Assembly: GCA_014728035.1 (NCBI GenBank)
Contig: WJMJ01000059.1
Location: 192,001 to 256,000 of the forward strand
DNA from: Promethearchaeota archaeon
GTDB lineage: Archaea > Asgardarchaeota > Thorarchaeia > Thorarchaeales > Thorarchaeaceae
Length of the DNA: 64,000 nt
Reading direction: 5' to 3'
Part shown: positions 17,367 through 20,715 of the stretch, one piece after another
Layout of the letters: each line of letters begins with the position of its first letter
How positions within the stretch are numbered: the first letter of the stretch is position 1
Notes under the pieces: model-generated
Told to the model about the DNA's origin: nothing
Databases searched by the model: none
Seen by the model: only the letters and a program-made list of their open reading frames with translations
Program-made: the position numbers and the translations under genes

Positions 17367-17444
17367 TGGTGGGCCGAGCCGGATTCGAACCAGCGATCAC
17401 CGCACTGTCAATGCGGTATCATAGCCGAGCTAGACCATCGGCCC
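17367..17444 (-). tRNA. tRNA-Val(GAC), intronless
   Basis: GGGCCGA...CCGCA-TTGACAG-TGCGG...GCTGG-TTCGAAT-CCGGC-TCGGCCC-A-CCA. Confidence 0.95.
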
Positions 17445-17802: not shown

Positions 17803-18045
17803 ATGACATTGGATAGGATTCGTAATGATGACTCTACGGATGAACACATCAAAACGATTGAAGAAATGGGGTGTGTCGTTTCCTTAGAGAACCTTGGCGT
17901 ATTTGAAAAGATGATTCGAAACCATCTCCCCACTACTACTATCAATATTTCCCAGTGGACATTCTATGCTATCAGATCTCTCCTTTTGATTTGCAGAGAG
18001 CATAATCTTCGCATCCAAATGATATATGATGGCACTCATATCACC
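17803..18045 (+). pseudogene. 5' part (81 codons) of a hypothetical gene interrupted by the IS607-family element
   Basis: Joins in frame to 20641-20715 when 18046-20640 is removed. Confidence 0.7.
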
Positions 18046-18250
18046 GTTGATTGTTACTTGGACAAACTTGGACATCAAGCAGTCCGTCCAGCAACGGTAC
18101 TGGACTGATACACATCAATAATATTTCTTGCGGCATTGACATCCGCGTGTAACTCTGACCCACAGTGAGGACAATAGAAGTATTCCCCGCCGGGACGTTT
18201 GGTTCGAGCTCCCTGTTTCTCCACCCGCATCCCACGCTCTCCACAGGCAT
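18046..18250 (-). ncRNA. predicted omegaRNA scaffold overlapping the tnpB 3' end (5' boundary approximate)
   Basis: Hairpin GTCCAGTA-CCGT-TGCTGGAC (18086-18105); its CCGTTG can pair with the element's terminal CAACGG, forming a pseudoknot. Confidence 0.55.
18058..18075 (+). repeat. right-end subterminal motif TTGGACAAACTTGGACAT (putative TnpA binding sites)
   Basis: 17/18 inverted match to 20606-20623; TTGGACA repeated with 10-bp period. Confidence 0.8.
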
Positions 18251-20216
18251 GACAATCCTGAGAGGTGTAGGCAGGATTTACAGTCCAGACCCCACCGTAC
18301 TTGTGACCGAGGGCTTGCCGCATGTAGGTAGTGGTGTCAAGGACCTTGGCCCAGAGATTGGTACTCAACTTCCAAGACAGCGTACCTGCACCCCATCCCT
18401 TGGGAGGCTTGTAGGACTTGAGGTTCTCAAAGTACAGGGTCTTGACCCCGTGCTCCTCACAGAACCACGTTGTACGATAGGCCACCAATCGAGCAATCTC
18501 GCGGTCTATCATCCGAACCTTCCGCCAGTGAGCATCCAACAGGCTTTCCTTCTTTTTCAGATGGCCGGGATGTTCCATATCAGGATGTTTTTGTTCCCAG
18601 TTGTTCCGCATCTTCCGGACCAGCGAGCTCAGCTTTCGAGTCTGGTCTCTGAGAAGTTCCCGTTTGTCTATCAGGTGGTCGAATCCCACCAGCTCGTCAA
18701 CATAACCACTTCCATTCTTTGTTGAAAGGACTATGGCGACACGGATTCCTCGGTCAGCACCAGCTCTCCTGCTGTAGGTGCGGTCACCGAGAATCGAGTC
18801 GATGAGCTCGGGATGGGGGGGTTGGAAAGGGATCTGCAAAGTCAACCTCTTCCTTCGTTTGACCAGTCTGGGAGGACCACATCGACGGGAATCGCGCAAT
18901 CGCTGTATCTTCTCTTGCAATTCAGCTATTGTTTCCTCGTCACGGTCACTCCGGTTCTTGAGTCTTGCTAGTTGGTAGGTTGCATGTTGTAGGTCGATGG
19001 TGTTTCTGAGTTGATGGTGCTGGTCTGCGTACTTTGCAGCTCGAAACCTGAGTTGCATGGCTCGGAGATGTTTTCCCTGTTTTTCAGCCCTCTCTGCTTT
19101 CTCCAAATCACGCTTGACAGCTCGGGGGAACCAGTCAAAGAAGCGAAGGGTCAGGTTTTTGGTCCTATAGGGATTATCTGGATGGGGCTTTCCCTCTACC
19201 GGAGCTGGGAGTTTGATGGAGAAGAATATCTCGTTCTCACGCTCTGTGTCCCACGAGTACCAATATCCCTGGCCTGGCATATTCTCTGTGGAACCAGAAA
19301 AGTCCGTTGCAAAGCTCTTCATCAGTGGAGTCTCGAAGGGATAGCCGTTGGTCAACCAGCCTTCGACCAGACTCTTGGCTCTCAGCATAACCCGACCATT
19401 CTCTTTGAGATACTTCTTTACTCTGTATCTCTGGGAACCTCGTGTCCGTAATGGTTCTCCTCGGTCAGTGAGGATGGTCTCGTCAAGAGTTCTACGAAGC
19501 TGTCGCAGAACAGAAAGGGCATAGTAGTAAACAGACCCCTTCTTCTCCACCGCTTCACACGCTTCCCGAATCTCTTTTATCAATCCAGGGGGCACTCGTT
19601 TTCTAGCTAGTAGCAGCTCTAACTTGTTTGAGTCTTCATGGACAATTTCCAAGGCTGTGGTGAGCAGTTGCCGTCTCATCCAATCTGAGAGGAGGATTCG
19701 TGCTGCTTGTTCTAAGGCATTGCGATACAATCGTTCGAAGGTATCTGCCTTTATCTCAGGATTATGCTGGTAAGAAAGGGTTGGTTCCTTTCGTAACAAG
19801 ACATATCCCTGCCCTCTATATCCTGCCAAGTCTGAACAAATCCGGTTAAACTCATACGAGTCTGCATAGACTCGATTCAGGACTTCATTCACCATCTCAA
19901 TAAATTTCTCAAAATACTTAGACACAATAGAGAGGTCAAGTTTGTTGATCTTCTGCCCAGTAGTTTCATGCAATCGTTGTTGGAACTGTTTTACTGCATC
20001 TCTCCTAAAGGAGGGGTCAGGCCTATACCCTTTCCCCTTCTTCTGGATGACTCGTTCAACAGAATTCAGTCGGAATTCAGATACAAGATATTTCAGTCCC
20101 GTATATTTCGCAGTGGTCGATGACTCCAATATAAGTTTGTCATCCATTGTCTGTTGCCTTGAAGAGTCCTTCTTTGGCTCCCGGAGATGACACCGGGCTT
20201 GTTTTTCAATCATCAA
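18075..20216 (-). CDS. tnpB: large TnpB/Cas12-like RNA-guided nuclease (713 aa)
   Basis: RuvC-I AGADRG, RuvC-II YFENL, VNPAYTSQDCHACG...CPHCG zinc finger, RuvC-III HADVNAARNI. Confidence 0.9.
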   Translation of the reverse strand: MMIEKQARCHLREPKKDSSRQQTMDDKLILESSTTAKYTGLKYLVSEFRLNSVERVIQKKGKGYRPDPSFRRDAVKQFQQRLHETTGQKINKLDLSIVSKYFEKFIEMVNEVLNRVYADSYEFNRICSDLAGYRGQGYVLLRKEPTLSYQHNPEIKADTFERLYRNALEQAARILLSDWMRRQLLTTALEIVHEDSNKLELLLARKRVPPGLIKEIREACEAVEKKGSVYYYALSVLRQLRRTLDETILTDRGEPLRTRGSQRYRVKKYLKENGRVMLRAKSLVEGWLTNGYPFETPLMKSFATDFSGSTENMPGQGYWYSWDTERENEIFFSIKLPAPVEGKPHPDNPYRTKNLTLRFFDWFPRAVKRDLEKAERAEKQGKHLRAMQLRFRAAKYADQHHQLRNTIDLQHATYQLARLKNRSDRDEETIAELQEKIQRLRDSRRCGPPRLVKRRKRLTLQIPFQPPHPELIDSILGDRTYSRRAGADRGIRVAIVLSTKNGSGYVDELVGFDHLIDKRELLRDQTRKLSSLVRKMRNNWEQKHPDMEHPGHLKKKESLLDAHWRKVRMIDREIARLVAYRTTWFCEEHGVKTLYFENLKSYKPPKGWGAGTLSWKLSTNLWAKVLDTTTYMRQALGHKYGGVWTVNPAYTSQDCHACGERGMRVEKQGARTKRPGGEYFYCPHCGSELHADVNAARNIIDVYQSSTVAGRTA

Positions 20217-20577
20217 CCTTGCACCTCTCTATCATTATATCCAATCCATATATTCTCCTAGAAGTGCAATAGAACCCAGACCAACTTCCTTGATTCTTTG
20301 GAAACTTTCGACTGTGCTGGCAGAGTTCCTCCACCTTCCGAGCCAGGTCTCCCGCCGCCTTCTGTCGGTGACTAGACACTCTTGCGTAGACTGCGGGATG
20401 AGCTGGAAGTAACTTCTCTTGGGCGGTTCCATGTTTGATCCGAGCTATCTCTCTGAGGGGGATACGACGATGATTACCAAGAGTTCGATAACATTCTATC
20501 AAGCCCTGTTTATCCCACCTTCTGATGGTCTTGGTGCACACTCCCAATCGAGCTGCTGCAATCGATACCGAAAACAT
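20206..20577 (-). pseudogene. tnpA: IS607 TnpA (MerR-type HTH plus serine recombinase), frameshifted and truncated
   Basis: AAARLGVCTKTIRRWD...GNHRRI, YARVSS...QKAAGDLAR. The IKEVG-like continuation lies in another frame, and the C-terminal half is missing. Confidence 0.82.
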
Positions 20578-20605
20578 GGGGACGTATTGACCTATTACTT
20601 AATCA

Positions 20606-20623
20606 ATGTCCAACTTTGTCCAA
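20606..20623 (-). repeat. left-end subterminal motif TTGGACAAAGTTGGACAT
   Basis: Inverted counterpart of 18058-18075. Confidence 0.8.
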
Positions 20624-20640
20624 AGTTCTGGTATCAGCCC

Positions 20641-20715
20641 GCAACCCCTGTTGCTCTTCCAAGAGGGCCTATGCTTGATATGTTTGTTCAGGCTATACTT
20701 GATGGTTCATTCTAA
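20641..20715 (+). pseudogene. 3' remnant (ATPVALPRGPMLDMFVQAILDGSF*) of the gene interrupted by the IS
   Basis: In frame with 17803-18045 across the shared CCG junction. Confidence 0.68.

Follow-up and report, generated by a model that had tools for sequence, protein, structure and literature searches.

Cas12 and Fanzor both descend from TnpB, whose compact relatives are used as genome editors. Fanzor2, by published accounts, derives from IS607-type TnpBs. Some TnpB systems involve aCas1, reportedly a term of Makarova et al. 2020. The TnpBs of IS200/IS605 and IS607 elements, represented by ISDra2 (8h1j) and ISFba1 (8iaz), combine a split RuvC domain with a TNB zinc ribbon in a WED/REC/RuvC fold. 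A structured, RNA-like element lies over the 3' end of the gene and stops at the right end (RE) of the transposon. Altae-Tran et al. 2023 (PMC10691335) described 'aCas1'-associated TnpBs in two Asgard groups, Cas1H-Asgard-1 and Cas1H-Asgard-2. There, aCas1 was suggested to be the transposase and was described as replacing the serine recombinase; downstream of tnpB a variable region follows a conserved T and is itself followed by a conserved GTTCACTCA. The locus considered here is a tnpB gene for a protein of 713 residues, carried by a stretch of 64,000 nucleotides (the window; contig WJMJ01000059.1) from a Promethearchaeota archaeon of the family Thorarchaeaceae. On balance, its product appears to be an expanded, omegaRNA-guided, RuvC-dependent DNA endonuclease, and the copy in the window a deletion derivative of a composite IS607-type transposon of about 9 kilobases (kb). 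What follows describes the catalytic motifs, the predicted fold, the structured and sharply bounded 3' element, the composite organization of the transposon and the host gene that is interrupted in the window.

The nuclease gene occupies a single open reading frame (ORF).

18075..20216, minus strand: tnpB, encoding a 713-residue RuvC/TNB nuclease (ORF, profile matches, alignment and model).

The frame holds 713 codons without an internal stop, and its candidate starts are TTG and then ATG. The RuvC residues are D488 (in GADRG), E597 (FENL) and D692 (HADVNAARN), and the zinc-finger cysteines are C655 and C658 (CHAC) with C682 and C685 (CPHC). All seven are invariant in a family alignment of 55 sequences. 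About 487 residues lie N-terminal to RuvC-I, and the translation contains the helical stretch AVKRDLEKAERAE...LRDSRR as well as PPRLVKRRKRLTLQIPF. The initial annotation of this DNA had reported an ORF of about 700 codons, some 480 residues preceding RuvC-I, intact RuvC acidic residues and CxxC...CxxC finger in an apparently intact nuclease, and the absence of a CRISPR array. Each of these points is borne out at the level of sequence: every string that it quoted is present in the translation, and no tandem or CRISPR-like array occurs in the part of the window from 8 to 32 kb. Nor was a repeated unit seen in the printed sequence downstream of the right end in related loci. The TNB zinc ribbon profile PF07282 matches at 57.6 bits (cut-off 26.3). 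The profile NF038280 (IS607_TnpB) gives 23.7 bits and stays below its cut-off of 350. In all likelihood the window gene belongs to the TnpB superfamily and encodes an intact active site.

An AlphaFold2 model built on the 55 sequences (mean predicted local distance difference test score, pLDDT, 78.8; predicted template modelling score, pTM, 0.68) displays the bilobed WED/REC/RuvC/TNB fold over residues 43–705. Its best Foldseek matches are Cas12f complexes (E 1e-9). VIA-align Z scores are 16.4 for AsCas12f (8dzj, 8j3r), 14.9 for mimivirus Fanzor2 (9b0l), 14.7 for ISFba1 TnpB and 13.4 for ISDra2 TnpB. About 350–390 residues are aligned across these four, with 378 residues (model positions 43–705) for AsCas12f and 367 for Fanzor2. 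Because the Z values are close together, they point to a common TnpB/Cas12f core and to no special affinity to Fanzor, so that the link to Fanzor2 drawn in the initial annotation finds no support here. The predicted fold is this core with about 300 extra residues, which the model places in three parts: a long helical REC, a coiled coil inserted in WED and a disordered N-terminus.

Residues 1–44: disordered N-terminus (model).
Residues ~72–290: helical REC, about 220 residues (model).
Residues ~305–360: WED strands (model).
Residues 362–443: coiled-coil insert between WED strands, about 80 residues (model).

Compared with the ISDra2 and ISFba1 TnpBs, the protein is longer by those extra residues, and its REC is predicted to be about twice as long. 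Compared with Cas12f/Cas14, the protein is larger, has only 12–16% sequence identity and is found without a CRISPR array, its guide apparently being derived from flanking DNA. Fanzor2 has the core fold in common, whereas the host here is archaeal, the match is no closer than that to bacterial TnpB or Cas12f, and the N-terminal expansion has no detectable counterpart.

The expanded N-terminus is a family trait. A word-indexed search with the window TnpB returned 214 clusters. Nearly all of the best 120 are 660–760 residues long, with 94–100% query coverage and 43–59% identity; four shorter matches among them are partial. Source names among the matches listed are all Candidatus Thorarchaeota where given, and the named homologues all come from Thorarchaeota or Promethearchaeota metagenome-assembled genomes, rather than from the eukaryotic or viral hosts expected of Fanzor. 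The possibility that a frameshift or assembly error had fused an unrelated gene to the nuclease fails in the face of more than 200 full-length homologues, and the N-terminus is therefore not a fusion artefact. Of 301 genomes drawn from across the phylum, only members of the window's own GTDB family (41 of its 76) have full-length matches, and a genome often holds several copies along with many fragments. When 1.84 billion representatives were searched by phmmer without filters, only two full-length matches emerged, at 57% and 45% identity. Outside the family, matches start at E 1e-14 and are TnpBs of about 475–530 residues, one of them annotated as a Hermodarchaeota TnpB. Since these matches cover only residues ~445–705, the RuvC half, for the N-terminal ~440 residues no sequence relatives can be detected beyond the family. 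Judged by sequence, the family is distinct, sharply set apart from other TnpBs, expanded and, within the set of genomes searched, limited to a single GTDB family of Thorarchaeota. Of the 93 positions at which the other 54 sequences show no variation, the window protein retains 91.

As in the TnpBs of IS200/IS605 and IS607 elements, a structured RNA-like element lies over the 3' end of the gene and stops at the right end. Its parts in the window are the following.

18044..18105, minus strand: conserved structured 3' element, putative omegaRNA scaffold end and transposon right end (alignment, covariation).
18105–18100 with 18091–18086, minus strand: P1 hairpin, GTCCAG with CTGGAC.
18097–18092 with 18049–18044, minus strand: pseudoknot, loop CCGTTG with terminal CAACGG.
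18085–18082 with 18063–18060, minus strand: P2 helix, GGAC with GTCC.
18074–18067 and 18064–18057, minus strand: tandem TGTCCAAG.
18023..18043, minus strand: core T (18043) and putative guide-encoding flank GATATGAGTGCCATCATATA, which is host-gene sequence.

The motif TGTCCAAGTTTGTCCAAnTTACAAT(C/G)AACGG overlaps or trails the tnpB stop codon in 30 loci, and in about 70 more examined later. Past this terminal CAACGG-type motif, family conservation stops abruptly and the sequences of the loci become unrelated. The stop codon of tnpB lies anywhere from 3 nucleotides beyond the motif end to 40 nucleotides before it in the 30 loci, and coding constraint therefore cannot account for the conservation. 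RNAalifold predicts a hairpin within the last codons of tnpB and a GGAC/GTCC helix. When 15 pairs of the three helices were tested, 96.7% of cells were paired and nine pairs displayed compensatory double changes; the innermost pair of the pseudoknot is CG in 12 sequences, GC in ten, AU in two, UG in two and UA in one. None of 500 shuffles reached the observed values, and slid controls gave 23–50% pairing. Taken alone, the window's own 92 nucleotides fold modestly (z −1.9). Of 66 distinct right ends, 56 terminate in CGG, nine in CGA and one in CGT; the next base is T in 51 and C in 15, after which sequences are unrelated between loci. In the window the boundary reads ...CAATCAACGG|T at 18044/18043; the scaffold would end at 18044 and the presumed guide would run from 18042 downward. 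The right end and the variable region derived from the flank are alike whether tnpB stands beside a giant ORF (described below), beside tnpA or alone. Covarying helices, a pseudoknot and so sharp a boundary are as expected of an omegaRNA scaffold with a flank-derived guide. About 600 nucleotides past the right end of the element, a tRNA-Val(GAC) gene lies at 17367–17444 on the minus strand.

The opposite terminus and the insertion site are defined by comparison with related loci.

20597..20648, minus strand: left end (LE), with GGGGTTGC at 20648–20641 including the GGT core (20646–20644), and TTTGGACAAAGTTGGACATTGATTAAGT, a subterminal inverted tandem, at 20624–20597.
17803..18045, plus strand: interrupted host gene, 5' part (orthologue comparison).
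20644..20715, plus strand: interrupted host gene, 3' part (..TPVALPRGPMLDMFVQAILDGSF*; junction reconstruction by our own reading of the sequence).

The inverted tandem has the form TTTGGACAAAGTTGGACATTGA at 20624–20603, and inverted tandem TTGGACA motifs occur at both ends of the element. In more than 20 related loci the left-end motif lies 20–35 nucleotides upstream of tnpA, preceded by GGGT...AACAGCT, with unrelated outer flanks; the LE consensus is GGGT...AACAGCT...GACAAAGTTGGACATTGA. By comparison with its orthologues, the gene that the window element splits encodes about 110 amino acids: orthologues in relatives are intact, with open frames of ~105–130 residues and most often 110, and the sister genome holds an intact copy (G128 C2:105437-105673). 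The GGT cores (ACC on the plus strand) lie at 18043–18045 and 20644–20646. Removal of the 2601 nucleotides between them restores both the host frame and the orthologue length, and the reconstructed junction, ...DGTHITPVALPRGPML..., equals the orthologue, ...DGIRLAPIALPKGPML..., in length and frame on our reading. A 5-nucleotide direct repeat, TGATA, is also present at both junctions; collapse at this repeat takes out 2593 nucleotides and throws the host gene out of frame. The GGT core is preferred as the crossover because it restores frame and length and matches the family LE (GGGT) and RE (CGGT) consensus. The element thus has a recognizable terminus on either side, each with subterminal repeats, and one short core common to both; such a core at both junctions is what a serine recombinase would require.

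Among related loci, copies that are 93% identical, within and between genomes (L053/L054 and L066/L068/L069), delimit solo tnpB units of 2.3–2.7 kb; their right homology boundary is the conserved RE, and the left boundary has no LE motif. In seven loci (L033, L035, L036, L061, L062, L065 and L067) the right end lies at one tRNA-Lys(CTT) site with the flank GTGGCTTAGCAGG. The TnpBs at this site belong to three subclades that are 47–54% identical. Simple vertical orthology of these loci was considered and set aside, as the TnpBs at the site in two congeneric genomes are only 50% identical; the pattern suggests a shared target or cassette replacement.

Between the left end and tnpB lies the remains of a transposase gene.

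20206..20577, minus strand: truncated IS607 tnpA, 123 residues, comprising a MerR helix-turn-helix and the start of the serine recombinase domain, including YARVSSHRQ.

The remnant covers positions 3–81 of the 187 in NF033518 and scores 57 bits (cut-off 110), in agreement with the earlier view that the transposase next to the nuclease has decayed. Intact TnpAs are encoded in the relatives L115 (176 bits) and L119 (160 bits), both above the same cut-off. The window's own genome, for which the estimated contamination is 8.5%, encodes on another contig (C16) an intact TnpA of 204 residues, 88% identical to the remnant over residues 8–101. Homology of the remnant to this paralogue ends near position 20296, about 80 nucleotides before tnpB. 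On C16 itself (L131:5419-7890) the IS607 TnpA gene abuts a 539-residue C-terminal piece of a giant protein on the opposite strand, and a tnpB fragment (residues ~240–325) follows this piece at the end of the contig. The locus looks like a composite element that was degraded, or that was broken by assembly. In genus g9, one or two TAG or TGA codons interrupt the frame of several TnpA copies that are otherwise full-length (L135, L136, L138, L154 and L155; 63–65% identity); these genes may be pseudogenes, with recoding as another possibility.

Complete relatives of the window element carry a further component. Upstream context was assessed in 58 loci of the ~700-residue tnpB family: a divergent giant ORF is present in 40, a tnpA-like sequence in five and neither in 13. 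The giant ORF lies about 170–190 base pairs upstream of tnpB, and its products, of 1400–1900 residues, form a Thorarchaeota-only family of 'hypothetical proteins'. Searches of Pfam, PADLOC and PDB sequence profiles gave no significant match for the giant, and a protein-atlas search no usable one. In a model of the first 880 residues of one such protein, P0125 (pLDDT 81.6, pTM 0.80), residues 2–253 resemble the catalytic helical domains of Cas1 from at least six systems and a casposase (Z 9–12.3, with 150–193 residues aligned), and residues 588–865 adopt a RecA/RAD51/KaiC fold (Foldseek E 1e-6, Z ~12). The Cas1 and RecA assignments are thus predictions from fold. The invariant residues E95, H185, D192 and D195 (P0125 numbering) would stand in motifs resembling those of Cas1. 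Between the two parts, a D...ExK...QLxxYE motif, read by eye, is typical of PD-(D/E)xK proteins (Cas4/RecB-like) and suggests a putative nuclease domain of that type. At residues 600–609 of P0125, where a Walker A GK[ST] is expected, the conserved sequence is S..S.G..AA. Since GK[ST] is missing from the RecA-fold domain, its ATPase may be inactive or atypical.

The order tnpA, inverted giant, tnpB is found in the ORF listing of five loci (L034, L163, L164, L165 and L166). Their tnpA is full-length in four and about 157 residues in L166, and full-length TnpAs score 160–176 bits against the cut-off of 110. In L167 (G108 C189:8500-18800), a giant of 1432 residues is encoded in the same direction as tnpA and tnpB and is separated from tnpB by two additional ORFs of 337 and 245 residues. 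On a maximum-likelihood tree, giant-linked, tnpA-linked and solo tnpBs are interspersed: the giant label requires 14 changes, and the 4 tnpA rows require 4. The idea that the three tnpA-linked copies form one clade was rejected, as they are dispersed on the tree. The window copy is sister to a clade of giant-linked and solo tnpBs. Most simply, the complete element would be composite and about 9 kb long, with shorter forms arising by deletion. As homology of the window tnpA ends at ~20296, a single deletion would account for the missing 3' half of tnpA and for the loss of the giant gene together with most of the intergenic sequence. The association with IS607 that was proposed earlier therefore stands in part: a tnpA remnant lies upstream in the window and intact TnpA in relatives, but the compact IS607 setting is unusual in a family in which giant neighbours prevail, and the window gene does not encode a plain IS607 TnpB.

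The described systems that come closest in context are the aCas1-associated TnpBs of Asgard archaea (PMC10691335). They are from the same phylum, a variable region after a conserved T is common to both, and most members of the ~700-residue family adjoin a giant with a Cas1 catalytic fold (best Z 12.3), although the window copy itself lacks such a gene. The published downstream motif GTTCACTCA differs: it is absent within 400 nucleotides downstream of tnpB in 30 loci of the ~700-residue family, and no conserved downstream motif was seen in the 70 nucleotides after the right end in 71 further loci. An exact GTTCACTCA does occur in the window's own genome, 95 nucleotides after the stop of a second tnpB on contig C123 (L130:1520-3193, minus strand; L040). 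This gene encodes a TnpB of 556 residues, divergent from a giant homologue of 1656 residues that is 27% identical to P0125; the zinc-ribbon region alone is common to this TnpB and that of the window. Since the motif goes with the C123 family and not with the ~700-residue family, the latter is probably the other published aCas1-linked Asgard group. The 'new lineage' of the initial annotation is thus probably not new as a branch of the tree. In the published elements aCas1 is described as replacing the serine recombinase, whereas here serine recombinase and aCas1-like giant coexist in one element. PMC10691335 makes no mention of IS607 TnpA and aCas1 in one element, of the ~700-residue architecture or of the pseudoknotted end, and among the papers searched none contains both 'Thorarchaeota' and 'TnpB'.

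The proposed mechanism may be set out in steps. (i) The ancestral element of ~9 kb would have had the order LE, tnpA (serine recombinase), inverted giant, tnpB, RE. (ii) A deletion from about codon 101 of tnpA to just upstream of tnpB would have produced the 2.6-kb window copy. (iii) The 3' end of tnpB would give rise to the RNA partner, in which the last ~60 nucleotides would form a hairpin, a long-range helix and a pseudoknot on the terminal CAACGG. (iv) About 20 nucleotides of flanking DNA past the element end would serve as the guide. (v) The target of cleavage, by analogy with characterized TnpBs, would be the empty or excised site, which presents a GGT-containing junction and the guide-matching flank. 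(vi) Repair from an element-bearing copy would restore the insertion. RNA binding, a target-adjacent motif (TAM), cleavage and the role in homing are what we infer for the window TnpB.

Several observations weigh against this account. The guided_TnpB profile NF040570 gives 69.5 bits where the curated cut-off is 100 (E 3e-19) and covers residues 445–699 only, a shortfall that is attributed to divergence rather than to a missing domain. The RNA structure was tested over the last ~60 nucleotides of the proposed RNA, and an Rfam scan of 16.5–21.5 kb of the window returned tRNA-Val only and no omegaRNA family. tnpA is truncated, the window copy is the sole full-length copy in its genome and the one right-end motif of that genome is its own. 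It stands on a long terminal branch (0.66) of the maximum-likelihood tree and keeps 88.5% of the positions conserved at 90% or more, where the family median is 97.5%; the copy may therefore be drifting. The truncated transposase gene, the solitary copy and right end, the long branch and the poorer conservation would all fit a dead relic, an immobile element whose ORF is still open, whose nuclease has no current role and whose guide matches nothing but its own flank. The element has a G+C content of 49%, the remainder of the window one of 40%, a difference that suggests foreign origin and points the same way. This alternative deserves to be taken seriously and is nonetheless rather unlikely, in view of the 713 uninterrupted codons and the retention of nearly all family-invariant residues, every catalytic one included. 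Solo tnpB units are moreover common in the family (13 of the 58 loci), and the intact paralogous TnpA encoded on C16 might act in trans.

It is improbable that the family acts mainly with the giant Cas1-like protein outside homing, for example in RNA-guided integration or defence, and that the window copy is an orphaned half of such a system. The divergent pairing of tnpB and giant in 40 loci would suit it, as would the combination of Cas1-like, PD-(D/E)xK-like and RecA-like parts in the giant; in the window's own genome, the second, unrelated TnpB family on C123 is likewise paired with a distant giant homologue. Yet contexts are intermingled on the tree, with 14 changes of the giant label and four for the four tnpA rows, and the right end and variable flank are identical in kind whatever the neighbour. 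The giants have no PADLOC matches, and complete elements have a serine transposase. Finally, the structural proximity to Cas12f and a weak match to the NCBIfam Cas12f2 profile (E 1.5e-14) might recall a CRISPR-associated Cas12, or else a nuclease-inactive, TldR-like RNA-guided DNA binder or regulator. Either would be very hard to reconcile with an invariant RuvC triad, with the absence of an array in the 8–32 kb searched and with flanks that differ between loci as for a mobile element, and both are given very little weight. The reading that is retained, a homing nuclease left in a deletion derivative of the composite transposon, is probable rather than certain.

Where the window alone is concerned, the yield is modest, a single reduced copy that may be inert. 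The family is of greater interest as a natural size intermediate, in which a TnpB/Cas12f core carries a REC about twice as long and a coiled coil in WED. Because the scaffold end and the start of the guide are sharply defined, a TAM screen and a cleavage assay can be designed from the sequence. The complete elements, which pair the nuclease with a serine transposase and a giant Cas1-like protein, open to testing how integrases of the CRISPR-adaptation type came to be linked with RNA-guided effectors, and may matter more. A bolder possibility, which is doubtful at present, is that the ~700-residue TnpB, its omegaRNA, the giant and the IS607 recombinase form one functional transposon in which an RNA-guided nuclease and a Cas1-type integrase cooperate, with the 300-residue expansion as their interface. 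If this were true, such a nuclease–integrase transposon would be either a natural intermediate joining an adaptation-type integrase to a Cas12 ancestor or a new kind of RNA-guided integration.

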